The notes beneath the pieces are model-generated. The model did no database searches. It was given only the letters and a program-made list of their open reading frames with translations, and was not told the origin of the DNA. Shown piece by piece: positions 4,781 through 51,710 of a DNA stretch of 64,000 bases (the stretch's first letter is position 1; each line of letters starts with the position of its first letter). Both the position numbers and the translations under genes were made by a program. The stretch lies in the IMG/VR virus record IMGVR_UViG_3300025424_000009, one strand, 5' to 3'. The DNA comes from a virus.

Positions 4781-5286
4781 ATGAAAGTAATAGTAAATGG
4801 TGGATTAGAAGATTACAAAATTAAACCTGGAGTATTATTGGTAAGTAAAGCAGAAACCATTATAGTTCTTGTAACAGACTACCCTGAAGATTGTAACTAT
4901 TTCAGTGGAGTTATCTTATACCGTTATAATAAAGAGTATATTGGACGCTACGAAGAAGACTTTGATAAAAATGCGTACCCAAATATATTCACTGGTTCTC
5001 TAACCCTCTCAAACGACTAGACATGACAGAAGTAAAAAAGCACTTTGCATTTATATACAACTTACCTGAACCTACTCAAGTGGTTTTATGGCCGGCTTAC
5101 TACGAAGATACACAAGAGTTACTAGAGAACTACGATGAGATAAAAGAATACAACATATCTAATCTAGGATTCTCAGCTTGGTTATCAGCTAATCAGCCGT
5201 ATAAAGTACTAGTTAAGAAATTTCAGCCAGTAGAAGAATCACCTACAACAGAAGATGATAAACCTAAAAAAGTTAAAAAGAAATAG
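4781..5286 (+). other. Two small hypothetical CDSs (4781-5020, 5023-5286)
   Basis: Co-oriented ORFs between groES and groEL. Confidence 0.65.
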
Positions 5287-5296
5287 CCAATCAAGG

Positions 5297-5417
5297 CTCT
5301 ACCGGGAAAACAACGGGATGTCAAGCTTGTGGAGAACTTAGTTCCTACTTATTAAGTAGCAGGAGTTCTGAGAAGCAAGAATTAAATTCATTAATAACAA
5401 TTTAAAATTTAAAGATT
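5297..5417 (+). ncRNA. Orphan TnpB omegaRNA-like structured element, copy 1 (groEL leader)
   Basis: Near-identical to 7666-7785; hairpin CTACTT-ATT-AAGTAG; AGAACT/AGTTCT and GCTT/AAGC pairings; one frame reads like a TnpB C-terminal tail (TGKTTGCQACGELSS...SEKQE). Confidence 0.65.
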
Positions 5418-7076
5418 TTGTCAGTCACAATCACATCCGGACAGGAATTAAAAGAGAAGCTGTTAAAGGGAATAAACCTTTCAGCCAACACAGTAACAGC
5501 AACAATGGGTAGCTCTGGAAGACCAGTAGCTATCAGAGATGATCAAGGAGTTATCCGTATTACTAAAGATGGATACAGTGTAGCTAATGCCATCACATCA
5601 TTTGAAGATCCTATTGAGGATATGGCTTTACAGCTACTTAAAGCTTCTGCTAAGAAGACAGTAGATGAAGCTGGAGATGGTACCACTACCACTACCTTGT
5701 TAGTACAGTCTATAGTAAATGAATGTTTAGATATTACTTCCAAGGATGTCAATATAGTAGAAGTACAAAAAGGTATTAATACCTCAGTTGATAACATCAT
5801 AGCTAACCTAAAAGAGCAAGCTATGGAGATTACTACCGAAGAACAAATCTATAGTGTAGCTAAACTATCAGCTAACGGTGATGATGTGATTGCTAAATTG
5901 ATTGCAACATCAATAGATAAAGCTGGGAGAGACGGAAGTATTTCTATTGAAGAATCTAAGTTTGCAGAAGATTCATTAGAAGAGGTAGAAGGTATGGTGA
6001 TAGATAAAGGTCTTTCACATCATCACTTCATTACCGATGAAGCTAAAAACCATTCATTCCTTACAGAGCCTCTTATCCTTCTAGTAGACGAAGTAATGAG
6101 TACCTTAGAATCAGTTACCCCTTTCATGGTGTATGCATCTGAGAAAGAAAAGCCTCTATTAATCATAGCAGAAGGAGTAGAATCAGCAGCTATCTCTGTT
6201 CTAATTGTGAATCACCTTAGAGGTAACTGTAGAGCAGCAGTAGTAAAATCACCTGACTTTGGCCCTAGACGTAAAGCTATCTTGGAAGATATTGCTATTA
6301 TGACTGGAGCTACTGTATTAAGCAGAGAGAAAGGACACGACTTAAAGAAGTTAAAAGATGTAGGGCAGTATCTAGGCTCTTGCCGTTCAGCCACTATTAC
6401 TAAAGATAGCACTACTATCATAGATGGTCGAGGTGATAAGGACCGTATCGAAGAGAGGTTACTAGCTATCAAGGCTCAAATAGATAATGCTTCTTCAGCC
6501 TTTGAGAAAGAGAATCTTCAAGAGAGGTTAGGAAAGATGATTGGAGGAGTAGTTATCATCAATGTAGGTGGTAGGTCTGAGGTAGAAATGAAAGAACGTA
6601 AGGATAGGGTAGAAGATGCTTTATTTGCCACTAAAGCTGCCATTTCAGAGGGTGTAGTGCCAGGTGGGGGATTAGCCTTAATCAATGCAGAACCTGCCCT
6701 AGATAAGCCTCTATTGAATAAAGACCAAGAGATTGGTAGAGAAATAATGAGGAAGGTAATCTTTGCTCCATTTAAAAAGATATTACTGAATGCAGGTATA
6801 GAAAATAGTTATAAAATATATGCTGGAATAAGAGATAACCAAATGGAATTGATACGGTTAGATAAGTCAGAAAAGATGTTATGGCAAGGCTACAACGTTA
6901 AGACAGATACCTACGGAGATGTAAGGGATATGGGTATTCTAGATCCAGTCAAGGTTACCAGAGTAGCTCTTCAGAATGCAGCGAGTACAGCAGGTATCTT
7001 AATGACAGTAGCTGCTGGAGTTAACGAAAACAAATCAGAAAAACATGGTAATAACACTCAAGAGCAGCAATATTAA
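5418..7076 (+). CDS. groEL: Chaperonin GroEL (TTG start)
   Basis: ITKDG, AGDGTTT, KSPDFGPRRKAILEDIAIMTG, RVEDALFAT, GVVPGGG, GILDPVKVTRVALQNAAS; 552 aa. Confidence 0.97.
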   Translation: MSVTITSGQELKEKLLKGINLSANTVTATMGSSGRPVAIRDDQGVIRITKDGYSVANAITSFEDPIEDMALQLLKASAKKTVDEAGDGTTTTTLLVQSIVNECLDITSKDVNIVEVQKGINTSVDNIIANLKEQAMEITTEEQIYSVAKLSANGDDVIAKLIATSIDKAGRDGSISIEESKFAEDSLEEVEGMVIDKGLSHHHFITDEAKNHSFLTEPLILLVDEVMSTLESVTPFMVYASEKEKPLLIIAEGVESAAISVLIVNHLRGNCRAAVVKSPDFGPRRKAILEDIAIMTGATVLSREKGHDLKKLKDVGQYLGSCRSATITKDSTTIIDGRGDKDRIEERLLAIKAQIDNASSAFEKENLQERLGKMIGGVVIINVGGRSEVEMKERKDRVEDALFATKAAISEGVVPGGGLALINAEPALDKPLLNKDQEIGREIMRKVIFAPFKKILLNAGIENSYKIYAGIRDNQMELIRLDKSEKMLWQGYNVKTDTYGDVRDMGILDPVKVTRVALQNAASTAGILMTVAAGVNENKSEKHGNNTQEQQY

Positions 7077-7170
7077 ACCTAGACAGATAGGTTCTGCATG
7101 GTTTGTAGCAAGTACTATCTTAGAGAGTTATTATAACAATTTATTTAAATCAGAAATAAAAACAAATAAT

Positions 7171-7437
7171 ATGAACATAGAAGATTTAGCTAAAGAGTTA
7201 CAAAGAGTATCTAGAGAGATACATGAAAAAACTTGTAATGGAGAAGCTAATATTGGGTTTATGTCACCTCATGTATATAAGGTTCTATACCCAACAGAGT
7301 ATAAAAATAGATCCTTGGCTTTTAGATTAAAACACAGAAGAAAAAATATTAATTGGTACCCAGTGACTGACCCTATCAAAAGAAAAATATATGATAGCTT
7401 AAACACAGTTGAGTTTTTAACTGTAACACCTTTATAA
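7171..7437 (+). CDS. Hypothetical protein (probable start at ATG 7171 rather than 7045)
   Basis: A-rich initiation region before ATG 7171; a start at 7045 would overlap groEL. Confidence 0.55.
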   Translation: MNIEDLAKELQRVSREIHEKTCNGEANIGFMSPHVYKVLYPTEYKNRSLAFRLKHRRKNINWYPVTDPIKRKIYDSLNTVEFLTVTPL

Positions 7438-7448
7438 AAATAAACAGT

Positions 7449-7661
7449 ATGAAATATAGAATCGTAGAGACAGAAGGAAAGTTCTTCCCTCAATTCGCAA
7501 ATAGCGAAACAAACAATTGGCTACCTCTTACAGCCAAGGGACTTAACACCAAGGAAGAGGCACAAGTAGTTGCAGATAAACATGCAAACAGTTTTAAAAG
7601 TGTCAACGAAGTAGTACACGATTATATACCTAATTCACAAAAACAAATTTTATTAGGTTAA
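7449..7661 (+). CDS. Hypothetical protein
   Basis: 70-aa ORF with an A-rich start context. Confidence 0.65.
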   Translation: MKYRIVETEGKFFPQFANSETNNWLPLTAKGLNTKEEAQVVADKHANSFKSVNEVVHDYIPNSQKQILLG

Positions 7662-7665
7662 TAAA

Positions 7666-7785
7666 CTCTACCCTAAAATCTAGGGGATGTGAAGCTTGTG
7701 GAGAACTTAGTTCCTTACCGAAGGTAAGCAGGAGTTCAGTGAAGCAAGAATTAAACAATTAAATAACAATTTAAAATTTAAAGAT
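7666..7785 (+). ncRNA. Orphan TnpB omegaRNA-like structured element, copy 2
   Basis: Hairpins CCCTA-AAATC-TAGGG and CTTACC-GAA-GGTAAG (covarying with copy 1); one frame reads TLKSRGCEACGELSS...SVKQE. Confidence 0.65.
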
Positions 7786-8091
7786 TTGGAACAGCAACAA
7801 TTAAAAATTGATTTAAGTAAAACAGCAGGGTGTATATGCCCTGCTTGTAGTAACAATACCTTTAAAGAGGTACTACTTATAAGAAAGGTAAGTAAGTTCT
7901 TGATAGGGTCTAATACGGATATGCACATGCCTATTCCGGTATTCTCCTGTACTAAGTGTGATACTATTCATACAGGATCTCTCACACCTCAAGTAAGAGA
8001 TTTATTAAATGTAAGTGATGATACAGTAGATGTAGAAGAGGAAGAAACCCAACAGAGTGCTAAAATAATTTCAATGTTTCCTAAAAAGTAG
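7786..8091 (+). CDS. Zn-ribbon hypothetical protein (TTG start)
   Basis: CPAC...CTKC pairs. Confidence 0.7.
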   Translation: MEQQQLKIDLSKTAGCICPACSNNTFKEVLLIRKVSKFLIGSNTDMHMPIPVFSCTKCDTIHTGSLTPQVRDLLNVSDDTVDVEEEETQQSAKIISMFPKK

Positions 8092-40000: not shown

Positions 40001-43000
40001 CGTAATCAAAACTTTATTCATTTCTTTACTTATTTAAAAATTCAATAATTAATTCTCTTGTAGTCTTGGTACCCACGTCTACTGTGGACCAGAACTTATG
40101 TTTTATTACTGACTCTACTAAGTCTTCAAGCTTATCTAAAGATAATGAATAATCAGTATCAATATTAAAGCCTAGATTAAGATATGTATTAGTATCGTTA
40201 AAGTTAGATGGTATTAGTTCTCCCTTCTCATTTAGGTTATGGACTATACAATCTTCATCTACTACATAGCCTCTCTCCCTTGCTAAGGGTATTGCTTGGT
40301 AATCTGATTCTAGTATATCCAGATCATCTATCTTCTGTACTTCCCAAGTGGGAGTTGACCTCATACACCAAGATACTAACCACCCTTCATCTTCGTAGGT
40401 GTGACCTACATTCATTAACTTACTCATAACTATTATTTTTTATTATAACTCTTCAAATAGATCTTCAAGGTTACTTGTTGCATTCTCTAAATCATTTACA
40501 ATGTCCTCTAGTACATTTAAATCATCATCCCACTCAGAACCCTTATCAGACTCTTGCCAAGCCTCTGACCTGCTGTCATAAGTTTCTTGACGCTTCTCTT
40601 GTAACTCTCTGAAGTATTCAGATGCTTCTGCTATTACTTCAATAAACTTTTCTACTTTTGCACTTCTTTTGATACTCAAAATCTTTAAATTTTAATTGTT
40701 TATTAAATTCAATTCTATTAAATCTTTCATAGAATCATCCACGAAGGTTACATCAAATCTATCGCCATTCAGACATACTGTAACTGGTAATGTTTTATCT
40801 TCTACCTTCATCAACTCGTCTATTAAGTATTGGACTGTTATACCATCTAACCCTGATAGCCTACATAGAACTTGGCAAGGATCCTCGTGATATTCATGAA
40901 CCTGAGCCATTAGTACATCCATGAATACTTGTTCATTGACATTAGGACACTCCTCTTTTGGCTTGTCCCAGAGAATACCTCCCTCTGGTGTTCCGTCATA
41001 TACTAAGTCCTCACAATGATAGTCGTAACCCGTACTGTGTAACATTGTTAAATACTGTATAGCCTCTACTTTAGATTTAATCGAGGCTGGTAAATTAATT
41101 GTAAGCGGCATATTTTATTGTTTTATTATTTGATTAATTCTCCGTATTCATCCACTTCATACTCATCAAGAGACATGGAAGATAGTTCGGCCGTAGCTGT
41201 ACCTGCATCTTTTAGATGAGATAATACATCCCATCCATAACCGTCTAGAAGCCATACTTCAGGACCACCTCTTGTGATGCGAGACCAACCGTCTCCACCG
41301 TCTATGTCGTATAAATCCTTACTATGTATTTCCTCTAGTATGTGGCAATGTAAATCAAAATAATCCATTGCTTGTTCTTCTTCTGTTATTGTCAACAGAA
41401 GATTGCCATCTTCTAAAAGTTCAATGTTCATAACTTTTATTTTTAATTTAACTAAAGAATTGTTCCTGTATACAGATCAGGTATAACATAACTAATATAT
41501 ACACCCTCGGATATCAATGTCTCTGCAATCTCTTCTGCCTTACTGATAGGTGCAAAACACCTCCACTGCTCCTCTTTAACATAGCAAGTGTCATCTTTAA
41601 ACTCCATCTCCCCAAAGATGATAAGGACTTGCTGTTCAGGTAGTAACTCTTCCACACTGACAACTTCAATACAAACATCATTTGTTACTATATCACCCCA
41701 ATCATAACCTTCTGCAATCTCTTCTGCAAGCCTTCTTGCATCAACTTCATTCTCCGAATTTACTGTAAATGAGTTTGACTGATAGCAATTTCTTGAAACG
41801 ATTACTTCATATTTTTTATTCATAATTTATTTATTATCAGGGTTAAGTATTATTTTACCATCCACCTCAATCCAATTAATTTCGGAATCATCTTCCACAT
41901 CCCATTCTGTGTAGTAGGACCAGTCACCTACAAACCAGCTATCTGGAACCGAACATTCATGTTTCCATTCTTCAGGTGTGAAGTGTTTATGAAGGCAGTG
42001 GTCAGAGCAATAGTAATCTTCACCCTGTGCTACCACAAATCCGGCATTCATGCCTGAGCCACACTCACTACATTTACGAGCCCATTTGATTACTTGTGTT
42101 GTCATAACTTAAATTTATTTACCGTTTAACCATTCTTCTACCATGTCAGTGAATTCATCTATACCTATCTCATCAGGCATTTGTATGTCATGTACCTCAC
42201 CTAGATAAGAACTGTTAGCATTATTCCAATACGTTTCATTCAAGTAAACATCTACTCCTGTTAAGTCTTGTTCAGGAATGAAAAAAGGTACGCATCTATA
42301 TTCAATACCTCCGATTGTAATTATAACATCTTGCATGATTATTTAATTTAAAATTTCTTCAATAAGTTCTTCATCTAAGGCTTTTCTAAACAACCCCTCT
42401 GCCGAGAGTATGAAATGATAGTCCTCAACGTAGTACGTTATAGCTTGGTCCACAGGTCCATCTATATCATCCCCCTTTCTCAAATCTAAATAGAGTGATA
42501 CCGGTGCCACTACTATGTTGTAACTCAATTCCTTCACTTTGAATTCACGGAGGGGGTATGATTTCCCTTTGTAATTTATACTATCCATTCTATACTGTTT
42601 TAATGTTATGAAAATTTGTTCCGGACTCCAGCACTGCATCTAGGTCATCCTCCCTAAAGTACTTTCTATTTACATCAGTATTACCCTCGACTAGGTAAGC
42701 CATTAAATCACCTAGACTTTCAAATAAAATGTATTCACCGTCTTTAAGATAAGCCCACACCAGTTCAGAGCCATGTTCACCACAACGATAAACCTCTACT
42801 GATTTATCACTTCTCCATGGATATTCGGTTAAGATACACTCCCACATGTTATATAAATTTTTTAAGTGTTAAATAATCTTGTTCAGTTATCTCTTGGTAA
42901 GACCTAACTCTAACCGCAATCTCTCCTGCGTTAAAGAAGTACCAACTATTGTCCTCCTCAGATGTGTTCCCGTAAAATGTACTAGCATAAGCATCAGCTA

Positions 43001-47899: not shown

Positions 47900-49220
47900 A
47901 ACATTTGTTTATATTTATTAATATAGGGGTAGTCCTAAGTACGTGCAGGTACTAGCTACATTAAAACCTTAAAGACATTAAATGCAATCCAAGTAAGCTC
48001 TACACAGCCGAAAGGGTTGCTTTATTATTTTAAATGCTAAAAGCCTACAAATATAGAATGTATCCCAACAAGACTCAAGAGATTCTTTTAAATAAGACTT
48101 TTGGGTGTTGTAGGTATTTCTGGAATAATTGTGTAGCTACTTTCAATAGTTATGATAAAGAAACTAATCCTCAACCTACTTTCAAAACTGTTAAGCAGTT
48201 ACGTGATGAGACAGGTTGGATGAAAGAAGTTTCTCATGATTCTGTAGCATCTAAAAGACTAGACTTTGAAGAATTTAAAAAACAATTCTTTAAACCTAAT
48301 CCTAAAAACAAACTAGGTAGACCTAAATTCAAAAAGAAAGGTGAAGGTCAATCTTTCAGATTAGATAAGCAGTATGTAAAGATAAAAGGTAACCTTACTC
48401 ATATTAGTAAGATAGGATGGGTTAAGTTTGTAGAACACAATCCTTTACCACCTAATTCACAAATAAGAAATGCTACCTATAGTAAAGACTCATTAGGTCA
48501 TTATTACATATCCATTCTAGTAGAAACAGAAGTAAAACATTTTGAAAAAACTAATAAATCCGTTGGGATAGATGTAGGACTAAAAGAATTCGCTACACTA
48601 TCTGATGGTACAGTTATACATAACCCAAAGTACTTTAGAGAGAACCAATCTAAATTAAAGAGGGCTCAACAACATTTAAGTAGAAAGAAGAAAGGTAGTA
48701 AAAGATATAAGAAGCAAAAGTTAAAAGTAGCTAAAGTTAACAAGGAGATCCAAAGACAACGTGAGTTATTCTTACACACTACCTCACTTAACATTGTAAA
48801 GAACTATGATGTAATATCTATAGAAACTTTGAATGTAAGTGGTATGGTGAAGAATAAGAAGCTATCTAAATCTATTAGTGATGTCTCCTGGTCTAGCTTC
48901 TTCTCCATGCTAAAATACAAAGCTGAATGGTACGGTAAAGAAGTAGTTCAAATCAATAGATGGGAACCTACTTCTAAGACCTGTAGTAGTTGTGGCTACT
49001 ACAATAAAAACCTCACTCTCAGCATTAGAGAGTGGGATTGTCCTGAATGTAACACTCATCACAACCGTGATTTAAATGCATCACTAAATATTCAAGCACT
49101 AGGAGTTTCTAGTGCTCAACGTACACTGAGAGAATGTAAGACTCCACTTGTGGAGCAAGCCTCGTTGAAGTGTATAAAGCATCAGTAGAGTAATCTACTA
49201 CAGCTTATAATTACGTTACG
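47900..49220 (+). mobile_element. tnpB-only IS200/IS605-type element inserted against the local gene orientation (ends approximate)
   Basis: Structured 5' region (AGTAC-GTGCAG-GTACT, GCAATCC..GGGTTGC), tnpB, omegaRNA scaffold; no tnpA in the window. Confidence 0.75.
48034..49188 (+). CDS. tnpB: RNA-guided endonuclease TnpB (IS200/IS605 OrfB)
   Basis: N-terminal KAYKYRMYP..Q...FGCCRYFWN; RuvC-I GIDVG, RuvC-II IETL, Zn finger CSSC/CPEC, RuvC-III HNRDLNAS; catalytic D-E-D intact. Confidence 0.95.
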   Translation: MLKAYKYRMYPNKTQEILLNKTFGCCRYFWNNCVATFNSYDKETNPQPTFKTVKQLRDETGWMKEVSHDSVASKRLDFEEFKKQFFKPNPKNKLGRPKFKKKGEGQSFRLDKQYVKIKGNLTHISKIGWVKFVEHNPLPPNSQIRNATYSKDSLGHYYISILVETEVKHFEKTNKSVGIDVGLKEFATLSDGTVIHNPKYFRENQSKLKRAQQHLSRKKKGSKRYKKQKLKVAKVNKEIQRQRELFLHTTSLNIVKNYDVISIETLNVSGMVKNKKLSKSISDVSWSSFFSMLKYKAEWYGKEVVQINRWEPTSKTCSSCGYYNKNLTLSIREWDCPECNTHHNRDLNASLNIQALGVSSAQRTLRECKTPLVEQASLKCIKHQ

Positions 49221-50609: not shown

Positions 50610-51710
50610 TTAGGTATGTTTTATTCCAGTAATGTCTTCAAATATTTCGGCATCGAAGTTAGGTAGAGTTAAGAATACATTCTTATTTTCTTCTGAAAGA
50701 TTATTCCACATATTACTCCAAGCTTCTTTTAATGAAATTATTTTCAAAAATCCTTCTGTAGTTTCATATTTAGGATGAGCAACTTTCTCTTCATTTGTCA
50801 TAATACTCATTGGCACCCAAATAGTAGTATCTAAGAATTTACTCATAATACTAACAGCAGGATGTCGTTCCCATTCAACCACTGAGATACTAGTAGGTTT
50901 ATTAAAGAGGTATAGGATAGGTGATTTATCGTTAGAAAAGGCACCTGAATTCCTATAACCTGAATTACTATCACCTGAATTCCTATCACCTGAATTCCAA
51001 TCACCTGAATTCCTATTACCTGAATTCCTATAACCTGAATTACTATCACCTGAATTCCTATCACCTGAATTCCAATCACCTGAATTCCTATTACCTGAAT
51101 TACTATCACCTGAATTCCAATCACCTGAATTCCTATCACCTGAATTCCAATCACCTGAATTCCTATTACCTGAATTACTATCACCTGAATTCCAATCACC
51201 TGAATTACTATCACCTGAATTCCAATCACCTGAATTCCTATTACCTGAATTACTATTACCTGAATTACTATCACCTGAATTCCAATCACCTGAATTACTA
51301 TCACCTGAATTCCAATCACCTGAATTCCTATTACCTGAATTCCTATTACCTGAATTCCTATTACCTGAATTCGAATGTCCAGTATTATTCATACCTTCAT
51401 TAGCTACAAGTAATACTTCTTGCCAATCTAAAATTCTTATTATTCTCAGAATGTTTGTACAAGCTTTACTATCATCACCCTTGAACCGTACATCACCTAA
51501 AGCTTCAACCTCACACACTATATTCTCAGGAGTGAAGTAATAGTAATTAAAGCAATCAGAAGCTTTAAGACAGAAGTGAAAACCTGATGAACATATTTTT
51601 AATTCACCTTTATGTTCAAATGTTTCATTAACTTTGAACTGATAACCATTACATGTAAAGTCAGGATTAAATACTTTGTAACCCTTTACTACTTTTGTTT
51701 CTTCTTTCAT
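50610..51710 (-). CDS. Phage protein with 29 NSGxx pentapeptide repeats
   Basis: N-terminal GYKVF..DFTC.GYQF...CSSGFHFC domain, central (NSG[D/N/Y][W/R/S])n, C-terminal LPNFDAEIF..ITGI. Confidence 0.85.
   Translation of the reverse strand: MKEETKVVKGYKVFNPDFTCNGYQFKVNETFEHKGELKICSSGFHFCLKASDCFNYYYFTPENIVCEVEALGDVRFKGDDSKACTNILRIIRILDWQEVLLVANEGMNNTGHSNSGNRNSGNRNSGNRNSGDWNSGDSNSGDWNSGDSNSGNSNSGNRNSGDWNSGDSNSGDWNSGDSNSGNRNSGDWNSGDRNSGDWNSGDSNSGNRNSGDWNSGDRNSGDSNSGYRNSGNRNSGDWNSGDRNSGDSNSGYRNSGAFSNDKSPILYLFNKPTSISVVEWERHPAVSIMSKFLDTTIWVPMSIMTNEEKVAHPKYETTEGFLKIISLKEAWSNMWNNLSEENKNVFLTLPNFDAEIFEDITGIKHT
50942..51372. repeat. Coding tandem repeat, about 29 x 15 bp
   Basis: Invariant core ACCTGAATT on the + strand with variable 6-nt linkers. 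Confidence 0.95.

Follow-up and report, generated by a model that had tools for sequence, protein, structure and literature searches.

Altae-Tran et al. reportedly described trans-acting, stand-alone omegaRNAs in 2021. The present analysis concerns two omegaRNA-like scaffolds, copies A and B, in a stretch of 64,000 nucleotides (nt) of the IMG/VR virus record IMGVR_UViG_3300025424_000009; this whole stretch is called the window. The two copies are probably right-end remnants of a solo-tnpB element, without its tnpB gene, whose tail now serves as the initiation region of the gene downstream.

RAGATH-18 is the central motif of the right-end element RNA (reRNA) of IS607-type TnpB, in which a 5′ hairpin region lies before it and a 3′ region after it, the latter followed by a guide of ~20 nt; 64% of 16,029 RAGATH-18 matches adjoin an IS607-type tnpB (Ren et al., Cell Res 2024, PMC11061315). 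Copies A and B resemble IS607 reRNA in their succession of 5′ flanking hairpin, kink-turn/loop-E core, 3′ flank and putative guide. They share with RAGATH-18 the core words UGUGGAG and UGAAGCAnGAA, and their full-length relatives likewise carry the scaffold 3′ of tnpB. Unlike RAGATH-18 reRNA, the window copies have a shorter inner stem and a 36-nt, AU-only 3′ flank without predicted stable stem-loops, and no tnpB adjoins them.

The copies also resemble the PATE-type, tnpB-less derivatives of IS200/IS605 elements (10.1101/2023.03.14.532601) in that they are protein-less, have kept a guide scaffold and would need a TnpB supplied from another locus. Unlike those derivatives, they lie in a phage, and their right end appears to double as an initiation region and as part of a start codon. 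Elements of IS200/605/607 that resemble PATEs or miniature inverted-repeat transposable elements keep both the left and the right end, whereas the window copies have no left end, which makes transposase-mediated mobility unlikely. A further parallel is found in the free-standing homing endonuclease genes of T4-type phages and in IStrons (10.1101/2023.11.20.567912), which are selfish and wedged at essential genes that are still expressed, and for which the predicted target is the insertion-free allele. Unlike in these systems, the nuclease would be RNA-guided and encoded elsewhere, and expression of the host gene would be restored through a substitute initiation region and a TTG codon rather than by splicing.

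What is new is the phage setting with empty-site controls, together with an ATG-to-TTG start-codon junction that is common to tnpB-bearing relatives. No description of a right end that comes to lie on the TG of a start codon and takes the place of the initiation region was found in the literature searched. Read as remnants, the copies document, with empty-site controls, the decay of phage TnpB elements to solo guide-RNA scaffolds. They would also explain TTG starts that otherwise look odd, among them the one of a phage chaperonin gene, and they indicate that a large branch of TnpB scaffolds, in phages and bacteria, escapes the RAGATH-18 model. Were the copies loaded in trans, they would constitute a minimal natural guide-RNA cassette and a simple test system for RNA-guided homing between phages.

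Two copies of a structured repeat

A sequence-only reading of the window had noted near-identical elements at 5297 and 7666, and a repeat search and alignment recovered both. Copy A (5297–5418) and copy B (7666–7787) lie in the same orientation on the + strand, with their starts 2369 nt apart. They are 85% identical across 153 aligned columns, which include blocks of 24 and 26 nt that are 100% identical. The 24-mer core occurs exactly twice in 64 kb, where no occurrence is expected, and copies A and B are found nowhere else in the window. Both are intergenic and 40 kb away from the sole tnpB of the window (48034–49188). Their scaffold type can be written as AAGCUUGUGGAG...GAAGCAAGAAUUAAA. The boundaries below rest on the repeat search, on folding, on the covariance model R1 described in the next section and, for copy B, on comparison with the related IMG/VR contig L120.

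5297–5417, + strand: copy A scaffold (repeat search, fold; R1 46.9 bits, E 1e-11)
5302–5316, + strand: 5′ hairpin of copy A; its outer stem is 5326–5330/5375–5379, followed by GGAG
5334–5339/5363–5368, + strand: inner stem of copy A, with the variable hairpin at 5345–5359, the word GAGAAGCAAGAA and the AU-rich 3′ tail at 5382–5417
7662–7786, + strand: copy B, a clean insertion of 125 nt by gapped alignment to the empty site of L120 (R1 55.3 bits, E 3e-14)
7671–7685, + strand: 5′ hairpin of copy B; its core is 7695–7750 and its AU-rich tail 7751–7786

Each copy folds in the order 5′ hairpin, outer stem (CUUGU/GCAAG), GGAG and inner stem (GAACUU/GAGUUC); the inner stem encloses a 6-bp apical hairpin, and GUGAAG or GAGAAG is left unpaired. 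The differences between the copies do keep pairing, as had been claimed: in a 22-pair structure for A and B, 95.5% of cells are paired, and five stem pairs are changed on both sides while none is changed on one side only. The inner hairpin holds four of these double changes (CUACUU/AAGUAG vs CUUACC/GGUAAG), and the fifth is in the 5′ hairpin. Sliding the partners by 1–3 columns lowered pairing to 36–55%, and 22 of 500 shuffles matched the observed compensatory pairing. Coming from two sequences alone, this covariation is suggestive and not statistical proof. The sequence-only reading had taken it as a sign of selection rather than decay. Divergence under a pairing constraint stands, but covariation by itself fails to exclude decay, because it is possibly older and dates from when each copy still had tnpB.

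Relationship to TnpB omegaRNA scaffolds

Several comparisons show that copies A and B are homologous to TnpB omegaRNA scaffolds, and neither has an adjoining tnpB. The copies and tnpB-linked scaffolds have in common the 5′ hairpin and a CUUGUGGAG...GAAGCAAGAA core. To collect the family, the two words that are invariant between the window copies were combined into a search pattern, CTTGTGGAG-N20-48-GAAGCAAGAA, which matches at least 119 IMG/VR contigs. Nearly all matches have a 5′ hairpin like that of the window copies (TACCG-loop-CGGGA..ACG), and in the majority GTTCAC or GTGTCAA comes after a GC-rich 3′ hairpin; about six are apparent chance matches in coding DNA, consistent with the ~20 expected for such a pattern. 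Among the matches listed, 117 had enough upstream DNA to be testable, and in 75 of them a full-length TnpB homologue, 35–41% identical to the TnpB of the window (TnpB1), ends just 5′ of the motif. Two further instances have an open reading frame (ORF) of 365–378 amino acids (aa) upstream.

An alignment of 47 non-redundant tnpB-adjacent phage scaffolds displays covariation in the 5′ hairpin and the inner stem. R1 was built from these 47 scaffolds, with the window copies left out. Both copies match over the full model length, and the rest of the window scores at most 11.4 bits. These scores are inflated because the words used to collect the family came from the window copies; that bias does not extend to the 5′ hairpin or to the association with tnpB. 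The conserved core (outer stem, GGAG, inner stem and (U/A)GAAGCAAGAA) and the 5′ hairpin of the copies fit the covarying family structure. Together, the R1 scores, the shared hairpin and core, and the linkage to tnpB bear out the proposal of an omegaRNA-like scaffold.

No tnpB lies immediately upstream of either copy on the same strand; the ORFs that precede them, 87 and 70 aa long, match no Pfam family. A tblastn search of the window with three TnpBs returned only 48034–49188 and an 18-aa tail-like stretch at 5283–5336. The folding energies of the 3′ tails of the copies are −0.3 to −0.8 kcal/mol (z about 0), compared with −15.1 kcal/mol (z −4.4) in a canonical member; two tnpB-linked, AU-rich relatives also fold weakly in this region (−1.7 and −2.3 kcal/mol).

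A scan of the window at Rfam gathering thresholds returned tRNA only. With relaxed settings, copy B matched RAGATH-18 (RF03064) with an E value of 0.0074 and 25.8 bits, where the gathering score is 44.9; in this alignment the conserved words UGUGGAG and UGAAGCA.GAA line up. Copy A had no match to RAGATH-18 at E≤10, even with an 81-nt slice. Scoring against omegaRNA models, which the sequence-only reading had proposed, succeeded with R1 for both copies, but with RF03064 it stayed below threshold for copy B and found nothing for copy A. The Rfam model also misses the tnpB-linked phage scaffolds L309, L101 and L031 though these share its core words; the window copies thus belong to a broad class of TnpB scaffolds only partly covered by Rfam. 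The same core is present in at least 120 bacterial genome contigs, including those of cyanobacteria, Sphaerochaeta, Verrucomicrobiota and Chlamydiota. A search with the 15-mer GAAGCAAGAATTAAA found the GTGGAG word nearby in one of the 120 matches listed and relatives in none of them, and blastn of the element against cultured phages gave low-complexity matches only.

Insertion at start codons

The positions at which the copies meet their neighbouring genes, and a third, shorter copy, are as follows.

5418–7076, + strand: GroEL-like chaperonin gene (Pfam Cpn60_TCP1, E 6e-54); TTG start, with the first T from copy A
7786–8091, + strand: 101-aa CxxC...CxxC zinc-ribbon ORF; TTG start straddling the end of copy B; no Pfam family
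5283–5296, + strand: left edge of copy A, which resembles a tnpB 3′ coding end (..ANQGST.. vs ..ANYSPT..) and begins at the TAG of the upstream 87-aa ORF
40680–40716, − strand: third copy, 5′-truncated and reduced to the 3′ tail (AGAATTGAATTTAATAAACAATTAAAATTTAAAGATT, ~37 nt); it abuts the TTG start at 40679–40677

A GroEL protein search identified two IMG/VR contigs, L120 and L121, with a 77% identical GroEL; L120 has no element at either site. Its zinc-ribbon gene starts inside an overlapping TAATG stop/start (..TTATTAGGATAATGGACCAGCAA..), and the window reads ..TTATTAGGTTAA[125 nt]TGGAACAGCAA... The correspondence of TAATG in L120 to TAA[125 nt]TG in the window shows copy B to be inserted cleanly between TAA and TG, its ends being ambiguous by 1 nt (T). 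The zinc-ribbon start codon is accordingly ATG in L120 and TTG in the window, with its first T(s) from copy B. At the GroEL start, L120 reads ..AAGAAATAATATGAGCGTAACAATCACA and the window ..AAAGATTT / TGTCAGTCACAATCACA, the slash marking the junction. ATG AGC GTA ACA ATC ACA in L120, which follows a 1-nt spacer, aligns with TTG TCA GTC ACA ATC ACA in the window, and both encode M-S-V-T-I-T. At the level of sequence, these alignments establish an insertion relative to a related phage and a TG junction that faces an ATG in that relative.

The left junction of copy A is less simple because L120 has an extra 65-aa ORF there, bracketed by AAGAAATAAT repeats. The TnpB tail of L311, a tnpB-bearing relative discussed below, aligns by tblastn with 5283–5336 at 61% over 18 aa (E 0.08), which is weak alone; the left edge was also compared by eye with L101 and L309. 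From the host stop codon to the scaffold there are just 4–14 nt, whose sequence resembles a tnpB 3′ end and not a left end. The 65-aa ORF itself (L120 3802–3999) lies between the orthologue of window ORF 5023–5286 and groEL, is absent from the window and is flanked by AAGAAATAAT(C)ATG repeats; it resembles a small cassette gained or lost via repeat recombination.

The third copy precedes a 78-aa TTG-start ORF (40443–40679, − strand), and the upstream ORF 40692–41111 (− strand) takes its final ~8 codons (..IELNLINN, then stop) from the 5′ part of this copy. L120 and L121 end short of this site, and the comparison of insertions covers copies A and B. In copies A and B and in the third remnant alike, the element stops at the TG of what was an ATG, and the start codon now reads TTG.

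TGAG stands at the junction in four of the five sites examined (window 5418 and 40679, L311, L309 and L120 4001), as TTGAGT, TTGAGC or TTGAGA in occupied sites and as ATGAGC in the empty GroEL allele. AG follows ATG in only ~13% of the ATG starts of the window, and the TGAG junctions hint at a target preference. A consistent serine-recombinase core dinucleotide could not be read from the junctions.

Gene starts in the window lack a Shine–Dalgarno sequence and instead have an A tract at −13 to −10 and T at −1/−2; a TTTAAA-type word lies 5′ of 43% of the starts compared with 8.6% of background. This pattern is consistent with a Bacteroidota-type host. The last ~36 nt of the element are AU-rich, essentially unstructured and match the phage initiation consensus. 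The TTG junction and this match suggest that the downstream genes are now translated from the element leader, the tail providing their initiation region. The AU-rich 26-mer was also considered as an independent initiation module and rejected, as it aligns with the right ends of tnpB-bearing relatives.

tnpB-bearing relatives and scaffold decay elsewhere

A five-way alignment shows homology between the AU-rich tail and the right ends of L101/L311 (a 73-kb viral contig with a TnpB of 390 aa) and L309, the two closest relatives that carry tnpB. Their tails end ..AAAGUUU/UG and ..AAAAAAU/UG, at TTG-start ORFs, which places the same arrangement in two relatives that still carry tnpB. The left flank of L311 retains ATGAGCAACC; CCCCATGAGCAACC, also in this flank, corresponds to the original ATG and a 9-nt direct repeat of the right flank. 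With five junctions on start codons, this seat is a trait of the AU-rich sub-family. Furthermore, in L309 and L311 the reading frame of TnpB continues across the scaffold (..SEACGES..SMKQELN, then stop, and ..SQACGDGSS..), which explains the frame resembling a TnpB tail that had been noticed in the orphan copies and is indeed present there (..CQACGEL..SEKQELN and ..CEACGEL..SVKQELN).

Elements that have lost tnpB and kept the scaffold are common. The 220-kb phage IMGVR_UViG_3300037502_002993 (G003), which has terminal repeats, contains eight R1 scaffolds (L312–L319). A full tnpB accompanies two of them and a partial gene a third, and a fourth is fused to a 23-aa N-terminal stub only; the others are without tnpB, and in one of these a left end is fused directly to the scaffold. 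Unlike in the window copies, a left end is kept in L317 and L318.

Three further observations concern these relatives. The G003 inner hairpin CCUUACCGAAGGUAAG is identical to that of copy B. A complete group I intron (RF00028, 73.8 bits; L316 813–1187, − strand) lies ~300 nt 3′ of a tnpB-less scaffold in G003. Target direct repeats bracket several full elements, at 10–11 nt in L056, 9 nt in L311 and ~50 nt, diverged, in L071; neither IS200/605 nor IS607 transposition would be expected to leave such repeats, which are possibly a trace of homing with imprecise repair.

Probable origin as right-end remnants

It is proposed that a solo-tnpB mobile element carrying an omegaRNA scaffold at its right end inserted twice. 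The nuclease gene and the left end would then have been lost while the scaffold and the right end were kept. TAAT is present in both host junctions and in the tnpB 3′ end (GGCTAAT), which makes a microhomology deletion between host junction and tnpB 3′ end a reasonable, though unproven, route for the loss of tnpB. The right end of this sub-family is set directly against the TG of an ATG, its terminal T making the codon TTG. The GroEL-like and zinc-ribbon genes would be translated from the element-supplied leader, probably within a + strand operon transcript in which they are presumed to be co-transcribed; the position of the elements supports their being transcribed leaders.

Several points weigh against this proposal. 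No full-length parent of exactly the sequence type of the window was found in IMG/VR, where an exact 23-mer of the core also has no match, and within the family the core edges and the TTAAA tail occur together only in L101/L311, L309 and L310. The left junctions of A and B are near each other relative to the scaffold, which two independent deletions do not predict. Helices P1–P3 are flawless in both copies, beyond the need of a leader, for which the tail alone suffices because the third copy has only a tail. The use of TTG as a start codon is deduced from alignment, which is its sole basis.

Alternative explanations

The scaffolds might instead be working guide-RNA genes, whose RNAs a phage TnpB loads in trans after their excision from the operon transcript. 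The first ~16–20 nt of the GroEL and zinc-ribbon genes would then direct cleavage of insertion-free co-infecting relatives, and the 125-nt cassette would be copied in by recombination as a protein-less homing element. This proposal is compatible with an origin as right-end remnants and is not its exclusive alternative; it is held here to be possible, although on balance unlikely. Neither A nor B lacks any part of the scaffold between the 5′ hairpin and the right end, and their paired stem changes would fit a working RNA; equally, these changes may predate the loss of tnpB, and the third copy has decayed to its tail. An intact-looking TnpB1 is present in the window, and its tail shares the loop words (G)GAGA and CG(A/U)UGAAG and the architecture of the copies. 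However, that tail has other stem sequences and no R1 match, TnpB1 shares only 34% identity with the TnpB of L311, the closest scaffold relative that has a tnpB, and no cognate tnpB is found within the window. In jumbo phage G003, too, tnpB genes are few and solo scaffolds many. According to a preprint by Meers et al. (10.1101/2023.03.14.532601), elements without tnpB frequently have an omegaRNA, which would have to rely on TnpB in trans, and 36% of RAGATH-18 matches are not beside an IS607 tnpB (PMC11061315).

The junctions speak against trans guiding. No consistent target-adjacent motif is found at the three empty or duplicated sites (..GATAA/TG, ..TAATA/TG and ..CCCCA/TG), and by eye the guides mismatch the sole known empty alleles at 5/20 and 3/20 positions. 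Guide loading would compete with translation of an important gene, and R1 has no match within 4 kb in any of 69 GroEL loci of related phages.

Doubtful, and somewhat less probable again, is the fuller proposal that the cassettes are protein-less RNA-guided homing elements, solo omegaRNAs that borrow a TnpB from elsewhere in the phage genome. The insertion-free allele would be cut at its start-codon junction and the cassette copied in by repair, while its own initiation region and TTG keep the essential gene expressed; this, too, is judged improbable.

The structured element lies directly 5′ of both start codons, as would a purpose-built cis-regulatory leader (a thermosensor or protein-binding operator) for translation of the chaperonin and the second gene. 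Such a leader is very improbable. It is largely refuted because the element is not conserved: the 0/69 result rules out a conserved GroEL leader, and the closest relative has none at either site. Moreover, the structured part is homologous to tnpB-linked scaffolds, the part beside the start codon is unstructured, and the third gene has a tail without structure. Mobile promoter/terminator cassettes, such as the promoter early stem-loop (PeSL) elements of T4-type phages, are likewise shuffled among intergenic sites and would account for a repeated intergenic cassette in a large phage, but this is the least credible reading, as no hairpin has a U-run after it, no Bacteroidota-type −7 box (TAnnTTTG) is placed, by eye, for a transcription start 5′ of the start codon, and homology leads to tnpB-linked RNAs.

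TnpB1 of the window

The remaining features belong to the sole tnpB of the window and its 3′ end.

48034–49188, + strand: TnpB1 (Pfam OrfB_IS605, Cas12f1-like_TNB and HTH_OrfB_IS605; D-E-D and zinc finger by eye)
49095–49215, + strand: omegaRNA-like tail of TnpB1 (−36.8 kcal/mol, z −3.3; no R1 or Rfam match)

The tail has an outer stem GUACACU/AGUGUAU and an internal loop GAGAG../..CGUUGA. On folding, its elements follow the same order as in copies A and B, while the sequences differ, in agreement with the earlier remark that the copies mirror it. The CTTGTGGAG word in the TnpB1 tail was considered as a homologue of the core and rejected, since it sits in the apical hairpin, where the resemblance is coincidental, and the homologous outer stem is the one given above.

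Elsewhere in the window, tandem 15-nt units (AGGAATTCAGGTAAT) at ~51320–51360 (− strand) lie directly 5′ of an internal GTG ORF (50843–51319); by the ORF listing, this region is inside a 366-aa ORF (50610–51710).

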